Source: a virus
DNA length: 13,971 bases
UHGV virus genome: UHGV-1842250
Direction: 5' to 3' (one strand)
Shown one piece after another: positions 136 through 12,711 of the stretch. The translations under genes and the position numbers were made by a program. Each line of letters begins with the position of its first letter. Position 1 is the first letter of the stretch. Below the pieces are notes generated by a model, which was given only the letters and a program-made list of their open reading frames with translations, ran no database searches and was not told the origin of the DNA.

Positions 136-150
136 TTACCTTAAAGGTAT
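136..150. promoter_or_regulatory. Operator-like site upstream of int (TTACCTTAAAGGTAT), nested in a larger inverted repeat
   Basis: Matches the window-wide TTACC-N5-GGTAA motif at 9 of 10 fixed positions. It contains the 13-bp perfect palindrome TACCTTAAAGGTA and is flanked by TGACGGTAT (129-137) / ATACCGTCA (158-166). It overlaps a candidate -10, TATACT (148-153), about 40 bp before the int start. Confidence 0.4.
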
Positions 151-1451: not shown

Positions 1452-2111
1452 CTATCCTTCCTGGACTTTGGTAAGCGTCAGATTTCCGCAGAACACTGCG
1501 CCGGTGTCGATGTACATCTGGTTTGCATACACCAGTGGGTGATGTGCTGGCGTATGACCGAAGATGAACAAATCGGCACCGGTTATCTCCGAGACAATAC
1601 CGTCCTGCGCGTCGCTAACCCGCTCACGATTCCATATCACCATTTCTTCTGGTACTTGCTTATCGAATGCGTATTCGTTGTGCGGGTAGTCTGCGTGACA
1701 GATGACGACCTTCTTATTGCCGGTAACCAGTTCGATAATCATCGGGAGGTTGGTAATCTTTGGCAGAAGGTATTTGAGTTGCACATCCTGCTCAGAATCA
1801 AGTTGGTGCCACCATCCACCGCCGTTTGACATCCAATGTCCGAAACTTCCGCCGTTGACCAGTGCATCCAGCATCATCTGCTCATGGTTGCCACGAACAG
1901 CTCGGAACCACGGCATAGTAATCAAATCCAGGCATTCGACGTTTTCAGCGCCGCGGTCAACAAGGTCACCAACGGAAATAAGTAAATCGCGCGCCGGGTC
2001 GAATGAAACTTTGTCGAGTTCGTTCATCAGCAGCGTGTAGCACCCATGCAGATCGCCGACGACGAAGATATTGCACCAGTCAGCGCCATTGATGCGTTGA
2101 TATAGGTTCAT
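1452..2111 (-). CDS. Ser/Thr protein phosphatase, lambda-PPase / PrpA-B family metallophosphoesterase
   Basis: The translation carries the metallophosphatase signature GDLHGCY ... GDLVDRG ... GNHE ... ICHADYP ... GHTP. Start refined to the ATG at 2111 ([12 protein letters not shown]), which overlaps the upstream stop as ATGA; the track's longer N-terminus runs into the upstream gene. Stop TAG at 1452-1454, 2 bp from the int stop. Confidence 0.93.
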
Positions 2112-2758
2112 GCTGCACGCTCCCGCCCCTGGTTGTCTATTGGTGACACCGGAGCATTGCTGAATGCATTTGTTAATCCGCCAATATCCAACGCGTATCC
2201 AGGGTGTAGTTGCACTGCCGGGTCTTCGCACTGATTACCCCAAACATCGAAGCCATGAGACGTCTGGCGGGCGAACAGTTCAATGCGAGAAACATCGCCT
2301 AACAATTGCACAAGTTTTTCACGAACGACATCTGGTTTTCTTGAATGCTCAAGCCGCGGTGCGGTAAATGACTGAACGATCCCTGCATTAATGCGTGGAG
2401 GTAGTTTTCCCTTTACTGCAAACAGGCAATCTTCACTATTGGCGCGAGTCATGTGTCCCATACCCATAACCAGTTTATCTGGTTGTCGACTACCACATTT
2501 TATCCACGTGAAGCCCTTCATCGTCATCAGACGAAATCCCCAGGCTTCAACAACTTTTAGTGCTTCGAGTGGTTGTGTTGGCACCCACCACATGGCCAAC
2601 AGACAGTTTTCAGCGGTCAAATCCCACACAGGAAGGCGGCAGATATCCAGCACACTCATAACTGGATATTTAAAACCGGCACCGCGATTACCATCTGCGG
2701 CTTTGTCCCGGTATACCCAGGGTGGATCTGCATAGATTAGTGTGTATTTCTTAGTCAT
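2108..2758 (-). CDS. MT-A70-family DNA N6-adenine methyltransferase
   Basis: N-terminus [16 protein letters not shown] contains the DPPW catalytic motif of MT-A70 / phage Dam-like methyltransferases. Start ATG at 2758 is preceded by a G-rich SD (GGGGTGG); the stop TGA overlaps the phosphatase ATG as ATGA. Confidence 0.88.
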
Positions 2759-3050
2759 AAACCACCCCACAACATCCTATGCCGCTATAGTCGCCACGGC
2801 GAAGGCCGTTACCTTTTGTGATACATTGGTCCCTGCGAACCGCGATCCTTGCACGTTCAACATCACCAGAAGCAACATCCATACACTGAAGCCAAAGGTG
2901 AGCGGCAATGCGGAATTGCCCTTTTTTCTCTCTTTCAATCGCGCGTTTTTCGATCTCTATCGCCGCAGGAGTAACGGCGACAATCTTTGAAGGGCTGCGC
3001 ATTGAAACCTTGTTCATGTGATATTTTTCAAGTCGGCTTAACTTTCTCAC
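2751..3050 (-). CDS. Hypothetical protein, function unknown
   Basis: Only sizeable ORF filling the 400-bp gap between the excisionase and methyltransferase genes on the operon strand. GTG at 3050 is preceded by GAGGG; alternative ATG starts at 3017 and 3002. Its 3' end overlaps the methyltransferase start by 8 nt. I recognise no family. Confidence 0.45.
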   Translation of the reverse strand: MRKLSRLEKYHMNKVSMRSPSKIVAVTPAAIEIEKRAIEREKKGQFRIAAHLWLQCMDVASGDVERARIAVRRDQCITKGNGLRRGDYSGIGCCGVVYD

Positions 3051-3159: not shown

Positions 3160-3408
3160 TCATGCAGCGTTGCTCACAGGACGATATACACGTTGCTGAA
3201 CAGGAGGCTTTTTACCCTGGAACTCTGCCGGGCTTGCAGCCTGACGTTCATCAAGCCAACGCTCAACTTCGTCACGGTTCCATGCGCAGCGTTTGTCAGT
3301 GATATACCAGCGTTTAGGAAATTCCCCTGCGCGCTCCATACGGTCGATAGTGCTCCATGACAGTGGCACCACCGCCAGGAGTTCCTTCTTACCTAATGCA
3401 CCTTTCAT
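3160..3408 (-). CDS. AlpA/Vis-type excisionase or transcriptional regulator (small HTH protein)
   Basis: 82 aa with an AlpA-like motif (LLAVVPLSWSTIDRMERAGEFPKRWYITDKRCAWNRDEVERWL). SD GAGAGG sits 6 nt before the ATG at 3408. This type commonly partners P4-family integrases. Confidence 0.82.
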   Translation of the reverse strand: MKGALGKKELLAVVPLSWSTIDRMERAGEFPKRWYITDKRCAWNRDEVERWLDERQAASPAEFQGKKPPVQQRVYRPVSNAA

Positions 3409-3457: not shown

Positions 3458-4399
3458 TTACATAGATGTTTCGTTTAATTCTTCTCGACGAACGCTGTAA
3501 ACGTCGGTGGCTTTTGCCAGCAGTTCGTCATCATCTGAAAGTTTTTGTGCAATGTATTTGTAAGCCTTATCCAGTTCGGAGACAGTGCTGTAATTCATCG
3601 CTGCGCTGGTAAAGGCCATCAGCATTTCTTCTGGATCACGGCTATCCGATTTACGCGTTTGCTCATCAGGCTTTTTCGCTGGTTTAGCGTTGATCAGACT
3701 GTTCATTCCCGCAGCAGTGGTCGTTTGCGGAGTAATGTCTCGCTCAACGCGCGGTGCCGTTTCCTGTAATTCGTCTGGGGTGTAGACGCCCATGATTACG
3801 TCAGGACAGTGCAGGCGAGACCAGCGTTTTGTCGCAAGGTATGCGAGTTGTTGTTTCGGATCACTGGCCCAAAGTGTGGAGTTTCTTACCTGTGCTTGAG
3901 ACAGCATTAACTCAAGCACTCGAGGTTGATCCTCGCCCTTCATGGTTGCCCATACGCGAACACCGCAGCCTTCTTCGTCTTTTAGAGTCCAGCCTGGTGC
4001 GATATATGGATTGCCGTTTTTGGATGTTTTCTCAACAAACTTACCGATCACGCGTTCCCACGGCCCAAACCACTCGTAGTTGATGCGATCTTTTGTTGGC
4101 GACATCGTTGAGATAACTGCGTTTACTAATTGGGCTTCATAACCTAGCGTGCCGTTCACAACATGGGTTTTCTGAGCCACGGCAAACGGGTTCATTCCCC
4201 ACTGCGCAGCCTGCATTGCCACGGCCATGCAATCAGCTGGTTTCCCGGCGAGGTGCGCCGGTACCGTTACGCGGCTTTGCGCCATTACCTCGGCGAATTT
4301 CATCAGTTGGTTCAAGCCGTCTGGGCTGAAAATAGTTGCAGCAGTTCCAGCGATTGCTGTGTCTACTGGTGCGTTGATGTTTGCGATGTCGTTGCTCAT
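3458..4399 (-). CDS. bet: Single-strand annealing protein, RecT/Red-beta (Bet) family
   Basis: 313 aa. The segment ETAPRVERDITPQ resembles the lambda Bet region ERQPERDITPV, and the gene sits directly downstream of an exonuclease gene as in the lambda exo-bet pair. Start ATG at 4399 has AGGA upstream and overlaps the exonuclease stop (ATGA). Confidence 0.85.
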   Translation of the reverse strand: MSNDIANINAPVDTAIAGTAATIFSPDGLNQLMKFAEVMAQSRVTVPAHLAGKPADCMAVAMQAAQWGMNPFAVAQKTHVVNGTLGYEAQLVNAVISTMSPTKDRINYEWFGPWERVIGKFVEKTSKNGNPYIAPGWTLKDEEGCGVRVWATMKGEDQPRVLELMLSQAQVRNSTLWASDPKQQLAYLATKRWSRLHCPDVIMGVYTPDELQETAPRVERDITPQTTTAAGMNSLINAKPAKKPDEQTRKSDSRDPEEMLMAFTSAAMNYSTVSELDKAYKYIAQKLSDDDELLAKATDVYSVRREELNETSM

Positions 4400-4926
4400 A
4401 TGTACATATCCTGTTTGCGTGCCCACTCAGGGCGTTTAATGATTTCCACACCGCCCCATTCATCATTGATGCGGCATTCGTGATAGGTATTCAGATCCCG
4501 GCGGAACAGAGCGTGCCCGGCATCGACATCCTGCGCATCCAGCTCGAACACGCGTACCGGATACCGACCACAATCAATGCTTTCGCTCACGGCAAGAAAG
4601 AAAAAACCATGCGGCTGACCAGTAACCCTCATTGCGCCTTCGCGGTACATTGCGTCCTGCACGTGGTAGCGGAATTCCTCGATGTGGCGTGCAAAACGGT
4701 CCATATCTGCAACCTTTTTCACGTCGACGATCACGTTGTGCTCGTTCAGCCATTTGTCTGGACGAATTCGGCACAACTCACCCGTCTCTTCATCGTTCCA
4801 GTACATTGATGCTTCGCAGTAACCAGGTGCTTCCAACATCCAGCGTGCCGCCGGATGAGCCATTGCGCTATCACGCATAAGCTCCAGTTTCCGCCACTGC
4901 TCGGCATCAAGTACCGTAATCACCAT
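4396..4926 (-). CDS. PD-(D/E)xK exonuclease, C-terminal part (gene interrupted by a frameshift)
   Basis: Contains the nuclease core motifs RIRPD ... VIVDVKKV. This reading frame is open from 5130 to 4396, but its first ~55 codons overlap the N-terminal fragment's frame and look non-coding; 4926 is the first internal ATG. The partner fragment is 4937..5212. Confidence 0.7.
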   Translation of the reverse strand: MVITVLDAEQWRKLELMRDSAMAHPAARWMLEAPGYCEASMYWNDEETGELCRIRPDKWLNEHNVIVDVKKVADMDRFARHIEEFRYHVQDAMYREGAMRVTGQPHGFFFLAVSESIDCGRYPVRVFELDAQDVDAGHALFRRDLNTYHECRINDEWGGVEIIKRPEWARKQDMYI

Positions 4927-4936
4927 ATCCGCCACA

Positions 4937-5212
4937 TCACGAAGCCTCTTCGTCAGCTTTACCTTGTTTCGTCCGACGATCGAATTTCGGTGAAACAATG
5001 AAGCGTTTGTCGAACTCTCCAGGCTCCAGAAGCAGACAGTGCAATGCGGTTCCCATATCCAGTGCAGACTTTTTCTCTTCGTCTTCTGGTGCTGCCTGAA
5101 CCCATTTAAGAAGCGCCGGATTCTTGGCAACCATGTCCAGTTGCGACTTACTCACGCCGTCACCGGCGTGGTAGTCTTCGTTGCTGATGTCGAAATAAAT
5201 TCCCGGTTTCAT
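4937..5212 (-). CDS. PD-(D/E)xK exonuclease, N-terminal part (ends at a premature stop after a probable frameshift)
   Basis: 91 aa beginning MKPGIYFDISNEDYHAGDGVSKSQL ... GTALHCLLLEPGEFDKRF, which looks like the N-terminal region of phage Cas4/RecB-like exonucleases. Good SD (GAGGGA) before the ATG at 5212. The frame stops at 4937 while a second frame continues the nuclease domain. Confidence 0.7.
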   Translation of the reverse strand: MKPGIYFDISNEDYHAGDGVSKSQLDMVAKNPALLKWVQAAPEDEEKKSALDMGTALHCLLLEPGEFDKRFIVSPKFDRRTKQGKADEEAS

Positions 5213-5682: not shown

Positions 5683-5697
5683 TTACCGTTGAGGTAA
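5683..5697. promoter_or_regulatory. Operator site, perfect palindrome TTACCGTTGAGGTAA, promoter-proximal in the leftward (PL-like) promoter
   Basis: Exact TTACC-N5-GGTAA. It abuts the candidate -10 of the leftward promoter, and an extra TTACC half-site sits at 5670-5674. Confidence 0.6.
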
Positions 5698-5725
5698 TAA
5701 TTATGCGTATATGGTTTGGTGTCAA
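5697..5725 (-). promoter_or_regulatory. Candidate leftward early promoter (PL analogue)
   Basis: On the minus strand: perfect -35 TTGACA (5725..5720), 17-bp spacer, -10 AATTAT (5702..5697). Flanked by operator sites at 5745-5759 and 5683-5697, the same layout as the promoter at 8778-8806. Confidence 0.5.
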
Positions 5726-5744
5726 TAGATATGAGTTAAAAAAA

Positions 5745-5759
5745 TTACCCGTTAGGTAA
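5745..5759. promoter_or_regulatory. Operator site, perfect palindrome TTACCCGTTAGGTAA, promoter-distal in the leftward promoter
   Basis: Exact TTACC-N5-GGTAA, centred 62 bp from the site at 5683-5697. Confidence 0.6.
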
Positions 5760-5772
5760 TCGAATAGGCAAT

Positions 5773-5795
5773 AAAAAAGCCGCCATAAGGCGGCT
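5773..5795 (-). terminator. Rho-independent terminator after the repressor gene
   Basis: On the minus strand, stem GCCGCC / GGCGGC with 4-nt loop followed by a U-tract (plus strand AAAAAAGCCGCCATAAGGCGGCT), about 20 bp after the repressor stop codon. Confidence 0.65.
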
Positions 5796-5816
5796 TACTT
5801 ACTGAAAAATATGATT

Positions 5817-6401
5817 TTATTGTTTGTTTTTTTCGTTCTGGTTGATGACAAATTCAATGTAACTTTCGATCTTTGCCTTCTCTGTTTCAGGTAACAATGC
5901 GTAGCGCGAGCGGTCATAGTTGATAGTTGCAGGGTCATGCGGATGAATCAGTAGTTCATATCCGTGACGCCCGAATGCAGATGCAACATTCTCCAGGGTG
6001 GAAATGGAAACGCTGACCTCATTGTTTAACAGGCGGCTTATTGTCACCTGGGCGACGCCGGATGCGCGGTGAAGTTTTCCCTGAGTTGAAAGGTCGCGGC
6101 TTTCACTCATCCAGCGTTCCAGGTTGTGAGCTGCCAGCTGACCAATGTCGCTTGGGCCGACAGGCTGAAAACCTTCCTGAGAAAGCGAGCGATCGATATC
6201 AAGCCAGTTACGGGGTTTATTGGCGGCAGCTTCAATTTTTCGCGCAACCTGGTCGCCGATAACTTTCTTGCCAAGAGCCCAGCGGTTTACCAGATTTGCC
6301 TGAGTTCCAAGTTTTTCTGCCATCCGCGTCTGAACACCATTGAATTCACGGTCGATCAAGTCGTTGAGATTTTGCCTGCGGACGTCCTGGATACTTTTCA
6401 T
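5817..6401 (-). CDS. Phage repressor (cI analogue) with two HTH domains and no recognisable LexA/S24 autocleavage domain
   Basis: 194 aa, divergent from the Cro-like gene across an operator-rich spacer. HTH-like segments QTRMAEKLGTQANLVNRW and ASGVAQVTISRLLNNEVSVSISTLENVA. No S24 peptidase serine-lysine dyad or Ala-Gly cleavage context seen. No SD before the ATG, so the transcript may be leaderless. Confidence 0.8.
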   Translation of the reverse strand: MKSIQDVRRQNLNDLIDREFNGVQTRMAEKLGTQANLVNRWALGKKVIGDQVARKIEAAANKPRNWLDIDRSLSQEGFQPVGPSDIGQLAAHNLERWMSESRDLSTQGKLHRASGVAQVTISRLLNNEVSVSISTLENVASAFGRHGYELLIHPHDPATINYDRSRYALLPETEKAKIESYIEFVINQNEKNKQ

Positions 6402-6456: not shown

Positions 6457-6519
6457 TTACCCAACAGGTAAATGCACCTCATAGGTAACTATCCTTGATT
6501 TTTGTTACCTTATGGGTGA
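6457..6519. promoter_or_regulatory. Immunity-region operator cluster of three sites between the repressor and cro-like genes, with divergent promoters
   Basis: Sites at 6457-6471 (TTACCCAACAGGTAA, perfect), 6474-6488 (GCACCTCATAGGTAA) and 6505-6519 (TTACCTTATGGGTGA). Candidate rightward promoter: -35 TTGATT (6494-6499) or TTGTTA (6502-6507), -10 TATTAT (6525-6530), overlapping the third site. Confidence 0.6.
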
Positions 6520-6555
6520 ATATTTATTATCTGAAATAAATATCAGGCAATAGCT

Positions 6556-6786
6556 ATGAGCGATAACGGACATTTCGATTTCAAAAAGCACTGGCTTGCA
6601 CTTACTCCGGATGAGCGTGAAGCCTTCGCACAGGAAGCCGGAACGACGAGTCACTATATCCAGACTCACTTAACAGGTAAGCGCAAAATGCCAGGTAAAG
6701 TATTGATGAATGGGCTTTTTAAAGCCTGTAAAACAAGACAATGGCTGCGCTCAAAAGCAGAACTGGCATACTTCTTCTACTCATGA
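6556..6786 (+). CDS. Cro/CII-like small HTH regulator, first rightward gene
   Basis: 76 aa at the cro position of the divergent immunity cassette, with an HTH-like segment EAFAQEAGTTSHYIQTHLTGKRK. Followed immediately by an intrinsic terminator. Confidence 0.75.
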   Translation: MSDNGHFDFKKHWLALTPDEREAFAQEAGTTSHYIQTHLTGKRKMPGKVLMNGLFKACKTRQWLRSKAELAYFFYS

Positions 6787-6841: not shown

Positions 6842-6856
6842 GTACCTCAAAGGTAA
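6842..6856. promoter_or_regulatory. Operator-like site GTACCTCAAAGGTAA between the terminator and the replication genes
   Basis: 9 of 10 match to TTACC-N5-GGTAA, with the ACCTCA core shared with the sites at 5683, 6474 and 8806. An AT-rich stretch with weak promoter-like hexamers follows (6870-6920). Confidence 0.4.
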
Positions 6857-6934: not shown

Positions 6935-7147
6935 TTGAAGATAGTAACCAGAATGGAGGCCGCAAAAGCCGGGTTAAATCGCTATTTCACAGGAAAGCGG
7001 TGCCGTCACGGCCATCTCTCTGAAAGGTATGTTCTGAACGGAACATGTGTTGAATGTGCAATGAATAGCGCCAACCGCCATCGTAATGAATTTGCTTGTG
7101 CACTAAAGAGTGCAAGAGGGGAAACCTATGGCAAGCAGCTGGATTAA
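6935..7147 (+). CDS. Small Zn-ribbon protein (C-x3-H...C-x2-C), function unknown
   Basis: 70 aa from a TTG start at 6935, preceded by AAGGGG; the internal ATG at 6953 has no SD. Motif RCRHGHLSERYVLNGTCVEC. Its end overlaps the start of the O-like gene by 20 nt. Confidence 0.55.
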   Translation: MKIVTRMEAAKAGLNRYFTGKRCRHGHLSERYVLNGTCVECAMNSANRHRNEFACALKSARGETYGKQLD

Positions 7148-7958
7148 GGTTGAAGTTATCACTCCTGATAAACCTGAAATTTTTCAGATAGCAGAAATTC
7201 TGGGTATTGATCCAGATGCTGTTCTTGGAAAGCTGGTTCGTATATGGGCATGGGCTGACCAGCAAACAATAGACGGTAACGCTGGCAGCGTTACAAAAGG
7301 AGTACTTGATAGACTCGCTTTTATTACAGGATTTGCTGACGCCCTCATTAGCGTCGGATGGCTTGCTTATCATGACGGCAAACTAATTCTTCCAAACTTT
7401 GAGCGACATAATGGAGAATCATCGAAAAAACGTGCACTTACGAATAGAAGAGTGGCAGAGCATCGAAAACGAGTAACGCAAAAAGTAACGCCAACAGCGT
7501 TACAAAAGGAGTTACCAGAGGAAGAGGAAGAGGAAGATATATATAAAACCCCACACATAGCGCACGTGCGCGAGGGTGCTCCGACCAGTGAAGCGAACGG
7601 TATGCCGTTGCAGGTGGCTGAACCTGAATTTCTGGATGGCCTGAGTGAACCCATCGGGAAATTTCCGATGACCGATGGCTGGCATCCGTCGCCGGATTTT
7701 CGACGGCGTGCTGCGCTGTGGGGAACGGCCCTGCCGGAACCGGAATTTACACCTGCTGAACTTGCTGCATTCCGGGATTACTGGATGGCTGAGGGCAAAG
7801 TGTTCACGCAGGTTCAGTGGGAACAAAAATTCGCCAGGCACGTAAATCATATCAGGGGAAAATCAAAAAACGCCGGGAAAAGCGATGAGCTTGACTGGAA
7901 TAACACTGACTGGATAGAAGGGGTGTGGGATGAAATCAACTCCAGAACTTCTCAATGA
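7128..7958 (+). CDS. Replication initiator (lambda O analogue) with DnaT-like C-terminal domain
   Basis: ATG at 7128 preceded by SD GAGGGG. C-terminal motif PSPDFRRRAALWG...PEPEFTPAELAAFRDYWMAEGKVFTQVQWEQKFARHV resembles the DnaT/primosomal C-terminal domain. Iteron-like repeats and an AT-rich patch lie inside the gene, and the lambda-P-like gene follows directly. Confidence 0.8.
   Translation: MASSWIKVEVITPDKPEIFQIAEILGIDPDAVLGKLVRIWAWADQQTIDGNAGSVTKGVLDRLAFITGFADALISVGWLAYHDGKLILPNFERHNGESSKKRALTNRRVAEHRKRVTQKVTPTALQKELPEEEEEEDIYKTPHIAHVREGAPTSEANGMPLQVAEPEFLDGLSEPIGKFPMTDGWHPSPDFRRRAALWGTALPEPEFTPAELAAFRDYWMAEGKVFTQVQWEQKFARHVNHIRGKSKNAGKSDELDWNNTDWIEGVWDEINSRTSQ
7276..7548. repeat. Candidate replication origin inside the O-like gene: iterons, 18-bp exact direct repeat, (GAGGAA)x3 and AT-rich patch
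   Basis: GTAACGC at 7276, 7473 and 7485; its inverse GCGTTAC at 7288 and 7497 (12-bp periodicity in the second cluster). CAGCGTTACAAAAGGAGT is repeated exactly at 7286-7303 and 7495-7512 and is read in different codon frames (AGSVTKGV vs PTALQKEL). CATCGAAAA(A)ACG at 7420 and 7461, GAGGAA x3 at 7518-7535, GATATATATAAAA at 7536-7548. Confidence 0.6.
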
Positions 7959-8706
7959 GTACGATCGCTTACGTGAGCATGGTGTTGCTGTGCATGAAGA
8001 GCGGCGTGACAGCAATGGCAAAAAGGAGCAGGTTGCTAGAATTTTCAATGAACTATTTGTCCAGTTACAGGCTGCATTTCCTGCAAGCGTTTCGACCATA
8101 AGGGAGCAGAACAAACTTAATGAATTCCGTAAGCAATGGATGCTTGCGTTTCTGGAGAATGGGATCACAACAATGGAACAGGTTAACGCTGGTATGCGCC
8201 ACGCCCGCGCCAGTGAATCTCCGTTCTGGCCGTCGCCTGGGCAATTCATCAAGTGGTGCAAAGACAGCAAGATGGTTCTTGGCGTCACCATTGACGATGT
8301 GATGGCGGAGTTTCACCGGTACAGCAAGGAAAAAAGTTTATATCCTGGTGGTCCCGAAAGATTCCCGTGGCGACATCCGGTTATGTACTGGGTCGTATGT
8401 GATACCCGCCGTGCAATGTATCAGCGCCAGCTTAGCGAGATTGAGGTTGAGAAACACGCGCGCAGGCTGCTCGATGATTGGGCGAAAAAGGTGGCTTCCG
8501 GACAGCAGATACCCGATCCGGTGATCAGCATACAGGCAAAGCCAGAACCCATGAGTACACCTCCGGACACAGGGAGAGACGTTTACCATCCACCAGGGCG
8601 AAGTTTCGGGTGTATGCCTAACGCCGCCACCCTGGGGGGAATAACACCGGCGCAGTGGCTGATGGAGGAATACAGGCGGGGAAAGGCGGCAGGATTTATC
8701 AAGTAA
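7930..8706 (+). CDS. P: Replication protein P-like DnaB helicase loader
   Basis: Strong resemblance to lambda P over the block VARIFNELFVQLQAAFPAS...FRKQWMLAFLENGITTMEQVNAGMRHAR...PFWPSPGQFIKWC (lambda P has ...ATFPAS...RRQWVLAFRENGITTMEQVNAGMRVAR...PFLPSPGQFVAWC). Start overlaps the end of the O-like gene. Confidence 0.93.
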   Translation: MKSTPELLNEYDRLREHGVAVHEERRDSNGKKEQVARIFNELFVQLQAAFPASVSTIREQNKLNEFRKQWMLAFLENGITTMEQVNAGMRHARASESPFWPSPGQFIKWCKDSKMVLGVTIDDVMAEFHRYSKEKSLYPGGPERFPWRHPVMYWVVCDTRRAMYQRQLSEIEVEKHARRLLDDWAKKVASGQQIPDPVISIQAKPEPMSTPPDTGRDVYHPPGRSFGCMPNAATLGGITPAQWLMEEYRRGKAAGFIK

Positions 8707-8743: not shown

Positions 8744-8758
8744 TTACCTGCTAGGTAA
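8744..8758. promoter_or_regulatory. Operator site, perfect palindrome TTACCTGCTAGGTAA, promoter-distal in the promoter for the accessory block
   Basis: Exact TTACC-N5-GGTAA, centred 62 bp from the site at 8806-8820, the same spacing as the pair at the leftward promoter. Confidence 0.6.
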
Positions 8759-8777
8759 TAAAATGTTCTAAGATCTA

Positions 8778-8806
8778 TTGATTTCGTGTCTTATGTGGTT
8801 TTTAAT
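8778..8806 (+). promoter_or_regulatory. Candidate sigma70 promoter for the accessory block, duplicated PL-type architecture
   Basis: -35 TTGATT (8778-8783), 17-bp spacer, -10 TTTAAT (8801-8806). The flanking sequence CTATTGA and the operator spacing match the leftward promoter at 5697-5725. Confidence 0.55.
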
Positions 8807-8820
8807 TACCTCAGGGGTAA
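8806..8820. promoter_or_regulatory. Operator site, perfect palindrome TTACCTCAGGGGTAA, overlapping the -10, start region and SD of the gene at 8824
   Basis: Exact TTACC-N5-GGTAA. Its GGGG also serves as the ribosome-binding site for the ATG at 8824. Confidence 0.6.
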
Positions 8821-8823
8821 ATC

Positions 8824-9168
8824 ATGAGAAAACAGATACAGGCTCTTGGTCGACTCAAAACAGGCCAGATGAACAAAACAGAATCTGCGTATTGCCAGCA
8901 CCTTGAGCAGCGTAAACGTGCAGGGGAAATCGCCTGGTATCGATTCGAGGGTATCAAGTTGCGGTTAGCTGACAACACGTTCTATACGCCCGATTTTGCT
9001 GTGATGCTCGCCACCGGCGAGATGGAACTGCACGAAGTGAAAGGTTTCTGGACCGACGACGCCAGGGTGAAAACCAAAGTCGCCGCAGATCAGTATCCGT
9101 TCCGAATCATCGGGGTAACGGTTAAGCCAAAGAAAGCAGGTGGTGGCTGGAACATCGAAGAGTTCTGA
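8824..9168 (+). CDS. DUF1064-like phage protein with PD-(D/E)xK-like nuclease motifs
   Basis: 114 aa with YTPDF ... HEVKG, consistent with a D ... ExK nuclease core. Family name is from memory. Confidence 0.7.
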   Translation: MRKQIQALGRLKTGQMNKTESAYCQHLEQRKRAGEIAWYRFEGIKLRLADNTFYTPDFAVMLATGEMELHEVKGFWTDDARVKTKVAADQYPFRIIGVTVKPKKAGGGWNIEEF

Positions 9169-9229
9169 ATCGACGATCTTTTTAGTTATCAATGTAATCA
9201 ATAAGTTATGTGGATAAGCGAGGGTAAAG

Positions 9230-9724
9230 ATGGAAAGTAATATCAAAGGGTTAGTTGCCGCCGGGCATGAGATGGCTTCGGAACTGAAAGCAGAATGTGG
9301 TGCCGTTGATATGCGCAGTGTGGCAAAGCTGATCAGCGATTTGGCAGCGCAACTGGAAGTGCAACTGGTGCGTGCTAATGCGCTGGCCGAAGACCACCAG
9401 AGAGCGATTGAGTCAATTAAGCAGGCTGATTCGGCTGTTAAGTTGGCACACGAGAAGTTTTCGGCGCTGGCGGCGGAGAATGCGGGGCTGAACAAGTTCA
9501 TCAAAGATGATTGCTGGATTTGGGATGACAAAAGTGAAGAGTATTTCGACGCTGCTGACTGTATGCCAGAAACCCCAGCCACCGACGCCTCCCTTGCTGA
9601 AGTGCGGGCGCAGGGTGTGGAAGCATTCGCCAATAGCCTGAAGGTTGCCGGTGGTCATGAACATCCATATTCAGCGGTAGCCAACGAGTTCGCCGACCAG
9701 CTTCGCAAAGGAGGCAACCAGTGA
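9230..9724 (+). CDS. Hypothetical coiled-coil protein, possibly ead/Ea22-like
   Basis: 164 aa, SD GAGGG before the ATG, predicted helical N-terminus. The family assignment is tentative recall, not verified. Confidence 0.55.
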   Translation: MESNIKGLVAAGHEMASELKAECGAVDMRSVAKLISDLAAQLEVQLVRANALAEDHQRAIESIKQADSAVKLAHEKFSALAAENAGLNKFIKDDCWIWDDKSEEYFDAADCMPETPATDASLAEVRAQGVEAFANSLKVAGGHEHPYSAVANEFADQLRKGGNQ

Positions 9725-10353
9725 GCGAAATTAATTACCAGGCACTGCGTGAGGCGGCGGAACGTGCAATTCCAGCAATGGAACGCCTGTTAATGTTGCC
9801 AGTTGATGATGATCTGATAAGCGAACAGGAACTTAAAGATTACGGCGTGGATATTGATGCGCTCAACGCCTTCAAATTTCTGACCGGACCAGAAACCGTG
9901 CTGGCGCCGCTGGATGAACGGGAAAGAAACCAGCAATACATCAAATCCCGCGACCAGGAGAACGAGGAAATTGCGCTAACGGTTGGGAAGCTGCGTGTTG
10001 AGCTGGAAGCAGCAGAATCAAAACTCAACGAGCAGCGTGAGTATTACGAAGGTGTTATCTCGGATGGAAGTAAGCGCATAGCAGAACTGGAAGCGCGGGA
10101 AATAAAACCAGCCAAAGGTGAAGTTCTGGTCGTTGTATCTGGTTTTACTGGTTGCGGAAAAAGCGCCATTGCCGGGGAAATAGAAATCGCGATGAAGGCT
10201 ATTGGTGTACCGGTTAAGTGGACTAATGGCGATGCAGAAAAGCGCATGACTGGCGCTGACTGGCTGACTGCGATTGAGATGTACAAACCAACTGTGCGCA
10301 TCGTGGAAGTTAATGTGCCACGCGCCGCTGGCATTCGCATCAAAGGAGAGTGA
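9721..10353 (+). CDS. Hypothetical coiled-coil protein, possibly ead/Ea22-like
   Basis: 210 aa from a GTG start that overlaps the previous stop (GTGA), with AGGAGG upstream. N-terminus MSEINYQALREAAERA, a glutamate-rich coiled-coil centre, and a GCGKS-containing C-terminus. Confidence 0.55.
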   Translation: MSEINYQALREAAERAIPAMERLLMLPVDDDLISEQELKDYGVDIDALNAFKFLTGPETVLAPLDERERNQQYIKSRDQENEEIALTVGKLRVELEAAESKLNEQREYYEGVISDGSKRIAELEAREIKPAKGEVLVVVSGFTGCGKSAIAGEIEIAMKAIGVPVKWTNGDAEKRMTGADWLTAIEMYKPTVRIVEVNVPRAAGIRIKGE

Positions 10354-10354
10354 G

Positions 10355-10546
10355 ATGAACGGACAAATCTCAATTGTTCGACCGGGAGCATGTGACGATC
10401 GCGAGATACGACTGATTATTCGTCTGGCGATGGGGAAAACAATAACTGCTCTCATTACTCCTGAAAATCTCGCATTAGCATTAACAGGAAAGTCAGACCT
10501 TCCATTAGAGCTAAAGCTGCGAAATGTTGAGATTAAGGTGAAATAG
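10355..10546 (+). CDS. Small hypothetical protein (63 aa)
   Basis: Start refined to the ATG at 10355, with SD AGGAGAG and 1 nt after the previous stop. The track's N-terminal extension overlaps the upstream gene. No family recognised. Confidence 0.5.
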   Translation: MNGQISIVRPGACDDREIRLIIRLAMGKTITALITPENLALALTGKSDLPLELKLRNVEIKVK

Positions 10547-10548
10547 CT

Positions 10549-11391
10549 ATGACCACTATTACCAAAGAACGTATCGAATTATTCATTAAAAATCCGCTTG
10601 ATAACGGGCTTACTCGTGGCGAACAAATGGAACTGGCACGAATTGCACTGGCATCACTGGAACGCGAACTGATTCGCCACGAGCATGCCAAATGGTCTGA
10701 CTCCACATTTGGCTGCGTTGGCCCCATTGGTCCACTGAAACACCTCTCAAAAGAGGCTCTGGAAGCCGCAGCCGAACCAGACGATCTCAGCGAGTGGGCT
10801 GATATGCATTTCCTGTTGTGGGATGCACAGCGCCGTGCTGGCATCAGCGATGCTGAAATTACCGCTGCTATGGAAGATAAATTGAAGATCAACATGGAGC
10901 GCCAGTGGCCTGAACCAAAAGATGGTGAGCCTCGCTTGCACATTAAAGAACCCGGCAACTCTCCGGTAATTCCGGATGGTTTATCCACGGTATGCGCTGA
11001 GGCTTATCAGGTTGTAGGAGTTATGGCAGATGCGCTTGGTGTATTCGGTGATGCAGCAGTACAGAAAGTTCTGGATAACCTGTCACAGCAAAAACTTGTT
11101 CACAGAGATGTGCTGCCGTTCTCGCTTCCGGTAACTCCGGATGGTTGGGTTATGGTGCCGAAGAAACTAACCGCTGAGAACGGCGCTAAGGGTGTGCTAT
11201 CCGGTGAATTTTCAGAAACTACGTTTATAAGCTGCCCGGAATGCTTTGGCGATGATGATTGCGATACCTGTGACGGGAGCGGACGAATTGAAATTAAAGT
11301 ACCAGTCACGTGGACGACCATAAAATCCATTTGGGATAAAGGTATTGCGCATTTTGCAGCAAAACCGCCGCAGGAGGTTAACCGTGGCTAA
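10549..11391 (+). CDS. MazG-like nucleotide pyrophosphohydrolase domain protein (DUF550-like) with C-terminal Cys-rich Zn-ribbon
   Basis: 280 aa. The N-terminal helical segment (GEQMELARIALASLERELIRHEHAKW ... EWADMHFLLWD) resembles the MazG/DUF550 all-alpha NTP-pyrophosphatase fold. C-terminal CPECFGDDDCDTCDGSG is a metal-binding knuckle. Starts 2 nt after the previous stop. Confidence 0.55.
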   Translation: MTTITKERIELFIKNPLDNGLTRGEQMELARIALASLERELIRHEHAKWSDSTFGCVGPIGPLKHLSKEALEAAAEPDDLSEWADMHFLLWDAQRRAGISDAEITAAMEDKLKINMERQWPEPKDGEPRLHIKEPGNSPVIPDGLSTVCAEAYQVVGVMADALGVFGDAAVQKVLDNLSQQKLVHRDVLPFSLPVTPDGWVMVPKKLTAENGAKGVLSGEFSETTFISCPECFGDDDCDTCDGSGRIEIKVPVTWTTIKSIWDKGIAHFAAKPPQEVNRG

Positions 11392-11665
11392 CCTGCAACT
11401 TATCCTCAAAGGTGAATACTTCGATGCCATGATTCGCGGAGAGAAAACGGAAGAGTATCGCCTGTGTAATGACTACTGGAATAAGCGAATTATGTTCCGG
11501 GAGTATGACCGCCTGATTATCACAAAGGGATATCCGAAGCGCGACGATTCCAGCCGTAGAATTGATGTTCCGTATGACGGATATGAAATCAAGACAATCA
11601 CACATCCGCACTTCGGAGATAAACCGGTAAAGGTGTTCGCGATAAAGGTAAATATTGATGGCTAA
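11384..11665 (+). CDS. ASCH/DUF3850-like PUA-fold domain protein
   Basis: GTG start at 11384 with a perfect SD (AGGAGG, 6-nt spacing), overlapping the upstream stop. N-terminus LQLILKGEYFDAMIRGEKTEEYR matches the usual ASCH opening. Confidence 0.6.
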   Translation: MANLQLILKGEYFDAMIRGEKTEEYRLCNDYWNKRIMFREYDRLIITKGYPKRDDSSRRIDVPYDGYEIKTITHPHFGDKPVKVFAIKVNIDG

Positions 11666-11996
11666 ATCAGCAGCAGAGCGCAAAGCCGCTCAGAGAGCCA
11701 GACAAGCTGCATCTGGTGTGCGTAAGCTGGAGATTGTGCTTGATGCTCAGGAAATTGAAATGCTGGAGCGTAACTGTGCCACGCGTCGCCCCGGGCGTGC
11801 GCCTTACGAATTTGGTGAGTATATAGCGTTACTGATCCGCCAGGATGATGCACGCGTGCACGGGCGTATAAAATCGATCAGCAGAACACGTTGCGGTAAG
11901 TGCGGCGAGAGAGTTCCAGTTAATTCATGTCCGTGTAATGGTGACTCACAATGCTGGGTGACTAAAGGCTGGCATGAAACGAAATTAATAGTGTGA
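11658..11996 (+). CDS. Basic N-terminal / Zn-ribbon C-terminal small protein, candidate late-gene regulator
   Basis: 112 aa. Basic helical N-terminus (ERKAAQRARQAASGVRKLEIVLDAQEIEMLERN) and C-terminal CGKCGERVPVNSCPCNG. Last gene before the pre-terminase terminator. The regulator assignment is positional inference only. Confidence 0.55.
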   Translation: MAKSAAERKAAQRARQAASGVRKLEIVLDAQEIEMLERNCATRRPGRAPYEFGEYIALLIRQDDARVHGRIKSISRTRCGKCGERVPVNSCPCNGDSQCWVTKGWHETKLIV

Positions 11997-12004: not shown

Positions 12005-12045
12005 GAGTAGATTATGCATGATGAATTTGACGGGTTTTGAATACT

Positions 12046-12071
12046 GCCGCCAACTATGGCGGCTTTATTTT
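12046..12071 (+). terminator. Strong rho-independent terminator between the early/accessory genes and the terminase genes
   Basis: 7-bp GC-rich stem GCCGCCA (12046-12052) / TGGCGGC (12057-12063), 4-nt loop ACTA, then TTTATTTT. Confidence 0.7.
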
Positions 12072-12082
12072 GCATGGTACTA

Positions 12083-12115
12083 TTACCACAACGGTAACTA
12101 TTACCACGGTGGTTA
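12083..12115. promoter_or_regulatory. Tandem operator-like sites immediately upstream of the terminase small-subunit gene
   Basis: Perfect TTACCACAACGGTAA (12083-12097) followed 18 bp later by TTACCACGGTGGTTA (12101-12115). Half-sites chain as GGTA-cta-TTACC-N5-GGTAA-cta-TTACC-N5-GGTTA, echoing GGTAACTATCC at 6485-6495. No convincing sigma70 -35/-10 pair nearby. Confidence 0.5.
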
Positions 12116-12711
12116 TGATGCCTGCTGAACCTAAAACCTATAAACGCAAATCAACGCAATTTAAGCCACTAACAGCAATGCAGGAGGCTTATTGCCAGTC
12201 ATACATCAAAACGCCTGAAAACCAGACTCAGGCAGCGATTAACGCAGGATTCTCCCCAAATACAGCGGCAGTTAAAGCCAGTGTCATGATGCGCGATGAA
12301 CGCATTCAAAAACGGATTGCCGAGTTGATGGAGGAGCGCAACAAACGAATGCGCGTCAGTGCTGATTACGTTCTCATGCGCCTGGTGGAGATCGACCAGA
12401 TGGACGTGATCGACATCCTCAACGACGATGGGAGCCTTAAACCAATCCGTGAGTGGCCGAAAATCTGGCGCACTACGCTTAGTGGCTTTGATCTGTCATC
12501 GACCATCATGAACATGAACGAGGATTCGATAGAGACAATCCTCAAAAAAATTAAATGGCCTGACAAGGTGAAGAACCTTGAGCTGATTGGTAAGCATGTT
12601 GATGTCAACGCGTTCAAAGAACGTCTGGATGTTAATGTGAATGTGACAATTGCTGATCGCATAGCAGCAGCCAGGAAGCGACTCAAAGAACGTCAGGATG
12701 GTAATCAGTGA
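12115..12711 (+). CDS. terS: Terminase small subunit
   Basis: Resembles phage small terminase subunits (AYCQSYIKTPENQTQAAINAGFSP...AAVKASVMMRDERIQKRIAEL) and sits directly upstream of, and overlapping, the large-subunit gene. Start taken as ATG 12115 (or 12118); the track's TTG at 12037 would run through the terminator and operator sites. Confidence 0.82.
   Translation: MMPAEPKTYKRKSTQFKPLTAMQEAYCQSYIKTPENQTQAAINAGFSPNTAAVKASVMMRDERIQKRIAELMEERNKRMRVSADYVLMRLVEIDQMDVIDILNDDGSLKPIREWPKIWRTTLSGFDLSSTIMNMNEDSIETILKKIKWPDKVKNLELIGKHVDVNAFKERLDVNVNVTIADRIAAARKRLKERQDGNQ

Follow-up and report, generated by a model that had tools for sequence, protein, structure and literature searches.

The 194-aa protein encoded at the cI position of the window (the whole stretch of 13,971 nt analysed here) is Rep, the known master repressor of lysogeny in phiV10/epsilon15-type prophages. 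Rep is very probably not cleaved upon induction, but inactivated by a small antirepressor, Ant, which is controlled by LexA and encoded beyond the window. The finding on Rep is already known and adds little new biology, since the protein has been annotated from the phiV10 deposit onwards and was tested in phage vB_EcoP_ZX5 (ZX5), and both a mechanism and a structure have been published for a homolog. The main value of the analysis lies in annotation.

The window covers the leftmost 14 kb of a prophage of the phiV10/epsilon15 type (genus Uetakevirus), integrated adjacent to guaA. In E. coli KC-Dl-1 the same prophage is located directly after guaA. The nearest phage records are vB_EcoP_ZX5, PAS61, TL-2011b and phiV10, showing 96–98% identity across 61–80% of the window, and the best complete E. 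coli genome matched the whole window in a megablast search with 88% coverage and 97% identity. The prophage around the identical Rep is a mosaic, with 97–98% identity across 61–88% of the window. The published att core ATTGAGTGGGAATGATT is absent from the window because the window begins just inside the prophage. Outside the immunity region we assigned the following genes:

193-1449, integrase
1452-2231, NinI-like phosphatase
2108-2770, MT-A70 methylase
2751-3050, PerC-like activator
3160-3408, AlpA-type excisionase
3458-4426, RecT
4396-5212, RecE-like nuclease
7110-7958, DnaT-like replication gene
7930-8706, P-like replication gene
8824-11996, accessory genes
from about 12037, terminase

In the window recE carries a deletion, and the RecE encoded is a truncated fragment. 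The repressor gene is located between the recombination and replication genes, and its domains and terminator were placed as follows:

5817..6401, minus strand, rep, master repressor gene, 194 aa (ATG-started ORF, stop codon at 5817-5819)
6192..6401, minus strand, codons 1-70, N-terminal HTH DNA-binding domain (NDD; YdaS/HTH match, model helices 4-59)
5946..6146, minus strand, codons 86-152, second HTH_3-like domain, equivalent of the middle dimerisation domain (MDD; best HTH_3 stretch, alignment to 5D4Z)
5820..5945, minus strand, codons 153-194, C-terminal tail, equivalent of the C-terminal domain (CAD; aligned to the C-terminus of 5D50_A and 5D4Z)
5777..5796, minus strand, intrinsic terminator 3' of rep (8-bp stem with 6 GC pairs, T run)

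The phiV10 record carries an annotated terminator at the position equivalent to 5777-5796. Identity of the 194-aa protein is 100% to both phiV10 p40 and ZX5 ORF21, and the same protein, differing in no residue, is found in about a dozen further phage records, among them phiv142-3 and the O157 typing phages 9 and 10, where it is the repressor. Identity to the epsilon15 repressor gp38 is 42%. The text of the phiV10 record already mentions 'two helix-turn-helix motifs' and a similarity to the putative repressor epsilon15p38. A phmmer search against the PDB aligned Rep of Salmonella phage SPC32H (5D50_A) with residues 1-190 of the window protein (E 4e-42, about 42% identity) and also matched Rep(92-198), the fragment that was crystallised (5D4Z, E 4e-20); the structures of SPC32H Rep alone and bound to Ant are PDB 5D4Z and 5D50. 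Identity between the two proteins varies by part, being highest in the NDD (54%), followed by the CAD (43%), the MDD (33%) and the linker (27%). A database search returned 86 Rep homologs from Escherichia, Citrobacter, Lelliottia, Serratia, Raoultella and other genera, and the full-length ones are nearly all 190–202 aa long. Every feature of the SPC32H-type Rep family that can be checked within the window was found there.

We analyzed the domain layout by profile searches and by structure prediction. Pfam HTH_3 (PF01381) matched two stretches of Rep (E 1.2e-09), the best comprising residues 106-147, and the PHROGs repressor families gave separate matches to residues 1-76 and 98-191. An AlphaFold2 model calculated with 29 homologs as input (mean pLDDT 78) shows helical bundles at residues 4-59 and 83-151, which are connected by a disordered linker (residues 74-83), as well as a helix near the C-terminus (172-193), which is preceded by a stretch of low confidence. 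When this model was compared to the PDB using Foldseek, the only significant matches were 5D50 and 5D4Z (TM 0.72 for 5d4z, normalised to the target), followed by plain HTH domains. In the putative recognition helix of the NDD residues N36, R40 and W41 are invariant in 30 homologs and L37 is invariant or nearly so, which fits a conserved operator half-site. Residues Q107, Q118, T120 and R123 of the second HTH are strongly conserved as well. For SPC32H Rep, secondary literature (PMC9986798) describes an N-terminal DNA-binding domain, a dimerisation domain in the middle and a C-terminal domain responsible for tetramerisation and Ant binding. We infer corresponding roles for the three domains of the window protein by carrying them over from SPC32H Rep. 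The sequence-only reading had reported 194 aa and two HTH-like segments, both of which are borne out by the ORF, Pfam, PHROGs and the AlphaFold2 model. Its wording of two HTH domains holds in so far as two segments are present, but the second is a dimerisation domain in the solved homolog and, by analogy, is described here as an MDD rather than as a second DNA reader.

Searching for the palindrome TTACC-N5-GGTAA (15 bp, one mismatch allowed) yielded 10 sites in the window compared to 0.22 expected by chance. These sites and the promoters and genes of the immunity region are distributed as follows:

136..150, operator-like palindrome upstream of int, one mismatch
5683-5697 and 5745-5759, two perfect operator palindromes, 62 bp apart, flanking the leftward promoter
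5697..5725, minus strand, leftward early promoter-like site TTGACA-17-AATTAT (10/12 consensus positions)
6457..6519, region separating rep from the cro-like gene, with three operator palindromes (pattern scan), namely the next three
6457-6471, perfect TTACC-N5-GGTAA
6474-6488, operator palindrome GCACCTCATAGGTAA
6505-6519, one mismatch, overlapping the rightward promoter-like site
6502..6530, plus strand, rightward early promoter-like site TTGTTA-17-TATTAT (consensus match only)
6556..6786, plus strand, gene at the cro position, 76 aa, divergent from rep (phrog_35, E 5.6e-13)
6842..6856, operator-like palindrome, one mismatch, past the terminator of the cro gene and before the replication genes
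8744-8758 and 8806-8820, perfect operator palindrome pair, 62 bp apart, before the DUF1064 gene
12083-12097 (perfect) and 12101-12115 (one mismatch), operator-like pair just before the small terminase gene or within its 5' end

The gene at the cro position is a homolog of phiV10 p41 and epsilon15 gp39, and the operon starting from the leftward early promoter-like site extends from gp37/gp36 through recET. The same palindrome is found 14 times in the full KC-Dl-1 prophage and 15 times in epsilon15, where the sites include all seven that RefSeq annotates as 'protein_bind: repressor'. Their positions correspond to those in the window: at 33341-33402 epsilon15 carries three operators that are likewise spaced by about 17 and 30 bp, annotated repressor-binding sites at 32479-32632 equivalent to the operators at the leftward promoter, a pair at 35907 and 35969 equivalent to the pair at 8744-8820, and sites upstream of terS at 12-44, one of them annotated as repressor-binding, equivalent to 12083-12115.

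We then consider how the repressor is relieved. No member of a known antirepressor family was found in the window when 20 ORFs were compared to PHROGs and 10 of those ORFs to Pfam. The sequence-only reading had seen no CTGT-N8-ACAG LexA box in the promoter regions, and the scan of the window agrees with this: there is no perfect copy, copies with one mismatch occur at chance level (6 compared to 4.6 expected), and even the closest stretch deviates from the 20-nt LexA consensus TACTGTATATATATACAGTA at 7 positions. The phiV10 genome contains a perfect CTGT-N8-ACAG core at 20822-20837, with the start codon of p24 following about 20 nt downstream. Located between the virion genes and the gene for the tailspike, p24 encodes a 'hypothetical protein' of 85 aa that matches SPC32H Ant (5D50_E) at E 3e-46 with about 88% identity (tblastn). 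An ant gene encoding 85–86 aa and adjoining the tailspike gene was present in all seven relatives checked. Alignment of the region upstream of ant from SPC32H, ZX5, Tyrion (Enterobacter), BUCT711 (Klebsiella), phiV10, the KC-Dl-1 prophage and epsilon15 revealed a predicted LexA box in 7/7 relatives from four host genera, which ends about 20 nt before the start codon and has 2–4 mismatches to the 20-nt consensus. A conserved Rep operator precedes this box by about 45 bp. In epsilon15 the box is located at 19841-19856 and ant corresponds to gp19, which is annotated as hypothetical. A simple sigma-70 consensus scan gave no clear match for the ant promoter.

The two genes also occur together. Homologs of Rep were found in 37 phage records and those of Ant in 35, which is essentially one set; the two exceptions with Rep only are a 138-kb record that appears to be a chimera and a weak match from Pseudomonas. 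All complete phage genomes listed with an identical Rep carry ant. Among 5426 complete E. coli genomes the immunity region is present in 562 (about one in ten) and the ant region in 529. In the KC-Dl-1 prophage, ant lies further to the right, at a distance of about 21 kb from the point corresponding to the window end. By extrapolation from these relatives, the prophage of the window would carry ant as well. The earlier suggestion of an antirepressor encoded outside the window is therefore supported by relatives with an identical Rep, which carry the 85-aa ant and its LexA box beyond the region covered by the window.

Such a mechanism has been described for related systems. In Salmonella prophages, cleavage of LexA leads to production of Ant, which inhibits the repressor by protein-protein contact (review PMC7380047, citing Kim & Ryu 2013 on SPC32H). 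On DNA, SPC32H Rep is a tetramer, and tetrameric Ant binds two Rep dimers and thereby breaks the Rep tetramer (PMC9638917). The sequence-only reading had called the induction route unclear, which was overstated given that the mechanism is described for the family (Kim & Ryu 2013 and Kim et al. 2016, as summarised in secondary literature). Transferred to the window prophage, Rep would sit, probably as a tetramer, on the 15-bp TTACC-N5-GGTAA palindromes. Such palindromes enclose both early promoters, the leftward and the rightward one, and precede several other transcription units as well. DNA damage would activate RecA, and activated RecA would trigger self-cleavage of LexA. Loss of LexA would derepress ant (85 aa) at its place between the virion genes and the tailspike gene, and Ant would dock on the C-terminal domains of Rep and pull it off the operators without Rep being cleaved. 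Binding of phiV10-type Rep by its own Ant and the oligomeric states of both proteins are taken by analogy from SPC32H. Observations on phages of this type are available from two sources. Overexpression of ZX5 ORF21 abolished free phage and lowered endolysin transcripts by 99.99% and holin transcripts by 99.97% (PMC9782041). ZX5 lysogens spontaneously release about 1e7 PFU/mL (PMC9782041), suggesting that SOS need not be the sole route of induction. In a screen of DNA-damaging bacteriocins, microcin Mcc1229 induced prophages of the phiV10 species 21- and 47-fold (bioRxiv 10.64898/2026.05.26.727859).

Inducibility of phiV10-type prophages by DNA damage would also be expected if Rep were inactivated directly, by RecA-stimulated self-cleavage or by Lon/ClpXP at a non-canonical site and without any antirepressor, for which lambda cI, P22 c2 and LexA provide a general precedent. 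We consider this very improbable. Peptidase_S24 gave no Pfam match in Rep even at E <= 1, and PF00717 was found in 0 of the 86 homologs. The 194 residues of Rep contain neither an Ala-Gly nor a Cys-Gly dipeptide as a cleavage site, and no match to the G-x-S-M context (G[DNE]SM) of the Ser-Lys dyad. The catalytic fold of LexA, cI or UmuD was not among the Foldseek matches of the Rep model in the PDB, and the stretch after the second HTH-like domain is only about 42 residues long, so that an S24 domain would not fit. None of the features defining S24 self-cleaving repressors was thus found in Rep. Self-cleavage was rejected on the grounds of Pfam, motifs, domain lists of the homologs and Foldseek, and the earlier statements that the protein lacks an S24 signature and is unlikely to undergo RecA-stimulated self-cleavage proved correct. 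In addition, the homolog SPC32H Rep was crystallised together with its antirepressor and, according to secondary descriptions, is inactivated by Ant binding. Less credible still is the view that the 194-aa protein is another Xre-type regulator, of a toxin-antitoxin system or of accessory function, and not the prophage repressor. A weak Pfam match to YdaS_toxin, an HTH family, at residues 21-61 (21 bits, cut-off 30) and the label VapI antidote given to the protein in one phage record point in this direction. They are opposed by the cI position of the gene, the divergent cro-like gene and the clustered operators, by the identical ZX5 protein, which blocks lytic development when overexpressed (PMC9782041), and by homologs that are the annotated repressor in epsilon15 and the crystallised Rep in SPC32H.

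A different question is which protein acts on Rep. The ZX5 study gave the antirepressor role to ORF4, a Bro-N protein encoded just downstream of ant, and not to the small Ant (PMC9782041). Overexpression of ORF4 reduced the lysogen count about 1000-fold, from 1e9 to 1e6, and rep transcripts by 75% (PMC9782041). Bro-N comprises residues 17-107 of ORF4 and is followed by an Ant-like C-terminal domain, which shares 42% identity with Ant over residues 150-223 (E 1e-19). The same fusion is found, frameshifted, in phiV10 p23/p22, and many E. coli and Enterobacter relatives encode two Ant-domain proteins. Moreover, comparison of the E. coli with the Salmonella phages gives about 88% identity for Ant, but only about 42% for Rep and 43% for its Ant-binding tail, which leaves room for a second, co-diverged partner. 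We nevertheless regard it as improbable that this Bro-N/Ant-like protein, alone or together with Ant, is the working antirepressor: the fusion is absent from SPC32H and epsilon15, several records with an identical Rep have a single Ant-like place, and the Bro-N gene has no LexA box directly upstream. The sole good box in those genomes is the one at ant, and the small ant with its box is conserved in 7/7 genomes examined. Somewhat better chances, though still low ones, are given to an extension in which phiV10-type phages use two-tier or cross-talking antirepression by Ant and the Bro-N/Ant fusion, or in which the second HTH retains a residual contact to DNA. If this were true, several heterologous Reps would be targets of the conserved Ant, the Bro-N fusion would be the type-specific partner, and co-resident uetakeviruses would be induced in coordination, as with the Gifsy phages. 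The second HTH may contact DNA at the many paired operators.

For the preferred reading, in which uncleaved Rep is inactivated by the LexA-controlled Ant, the closest known system is Rep/Ant of SPC32H. It shares with the window Rep the full-length homology and the three-part layout, with the window prophage the genus and gene order, and with its relatives the operator palindrome near ant and ant itself with its LexA box. It differs in that identity of Rep is about 42% overall, in that Ant binding and the tetramer are assumed for the phiV10 type by analogy, and in that the E. coli relatives often possess the extra Bro-N/Ant-like gene. Epsilon15 resembles the window in having TTACC-N5-GGTAA at equivalent positions, as well as one site beside its ant (gp19), but infects Salmonella and carries other accessory genes. 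The pairs of coliphage 186 (CI/Tum) and of the Salmonella phages Gifsy and Fels-2 follow the same logic of an uncleavable repressor and a LexA-controlled small antirepressor, which is encoded away from the immunity region (PMC7380047). The likeness is one of logic, since the repressor architecture differs and these phages are P2-like or lambdoid rather than epsilon15-like podoviruses. Lambda cI, P22 c2 and LexA have in common with Rep an N-terminal HTH_3-type domain, a divergent rep/cro switch and SOS-linked induction, but possess the S24 domain, cleavage site and Ser-Lys dyad that are all absent from Rep. By analogy to SPC32H, Rep would be inactivated by a partner protein and not by proteolysis.

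In most of these E. coli and phage records Rep is annotated as 'helix-turn-helix domain-containing protein' and Ant as 'hypothetical protein'. Recognising the pair would explain the response of these widespread O-antigen-modifying prophages to DNA damage. Rules that rely on an S24 domain or on a LexA box near the repressor would misjudge the inducibility of phiV10/epsilon15-type prophages. The Arc/Mnt regulator and P22_AR_N antirepressor of a P22-type immI were absent from the window. One relative, the KC-Dl-1 prophage, carries an extra module of Arc and P22_AR_N, so that the P22-type module is an optional add-on.

The palindrome TTACC-N5-GGTAA, the putative operator of the 194-aa master repressor Rep, occurs 10 times in the window, where 0.22 copies would be expected. 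The copies are spread across the whole early region and are frequently paired at a spacing of 62 bp:

Window 136-150, 5683-5759, 6457-6519, 6842-6856, 8744-8820 and 12083-12115, TTACC-N5-GGTAA sites

In epsilon15 the counterparts of these palindromes are annotated as repressor-binding. Since their distribution in the window extends beyond the rep/cro switch, several promoters are probably turned off by Rep itself, among them the ones for int, for replication and for the DUF1064 and terminase genes.

Two of the operator-like palindromes (12083-12115) fall inside the small-terminase ORF as listed:

Window 12037-12711, small-terminase ORF, TTG start at 12037

In epsilon15 and ZX5 the annotated terS lacks about 25 of these codons, and the corresponding palindromes are located upstream of the gene. 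The true start in the window is therefore probably the downstream ATG (MMPAEPK...).

A perfect copy of the putative Rep operator is also present in the divergent ant/tailspike region of the E. coli KC-Dl-1 prophage (36523-36537), where it precedes the LexA box by about 45 bp. This operator upstream of the ant LexA box is kept in all seven genomes of the ant upstream alignment (columns ~115-131). Judged from the conserved proximity of the two elements, the ant or the tailspike promoter may be under dual control by Rep and LexA. A simple promoter scan of the ant/tailspike region did not place the ant promoter.

Further genes of antirepressor type were found in relatives. In the Bro-N protein that relatives carry, the C-terminal ~75 residues duplicate the Ant domain in diverged form, with 42% identity (E 1e-19), and it is this protein with its Ant-like C-terminus that was assayed as 'anti-repressor' in the ZX5 paper (PMC9782041). 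In phiV10 the gene is frameshifted, giving p23 and p22. Among its late genes the KC-Dl-1 prophage additionally carries an inserted module resembling P22 immI, and some phages of the phiV10/epsilon15 group may therefore possess up to three antirepressor-type genes. The respective loci are:

ZX5 1078-1773, Bro-N/Ant-like gene
KC-Dl-1 prophage 35178-35873, Bro-N/Ant-like gene
phiV10 19551-20230, Bro-N/Ant-like gene
KC-Dl-1 prophage 32334-34064, P22 immI-like module, Arc-family regulator and, in divergent orientation, a P22_AR_N antirepressor gene

Within the window, one gene of the early region reads as split:

Window 4396-5212, minus strand, RecE-like PD-(D/E)XK nuclease gene, broken into two overlapping ORFs of 91 aa and 244 aa

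The split is caused by a 5-bp deletion between ~4944 and 4945. In the KC-Dl-1 prophage the corresponding 273-aa gene, otherwise 98% identical, has these 5 bp and is intact. A 35-nt sequence across the deletion junction had no match in species-representative genomes or IMG/VR. The split reflects either gene decay, which would make this a pseudogene, or an error in sequencing.

One of the mosaic differences due to which no database record matches the whole window was seen next to int:

Window 1452-2231, NinI-like Ser/Thr phosphatase gene, between int and methylase

At this position phiV10 and ZX5 instead carry a small DUF1382 or hypothetical gene.
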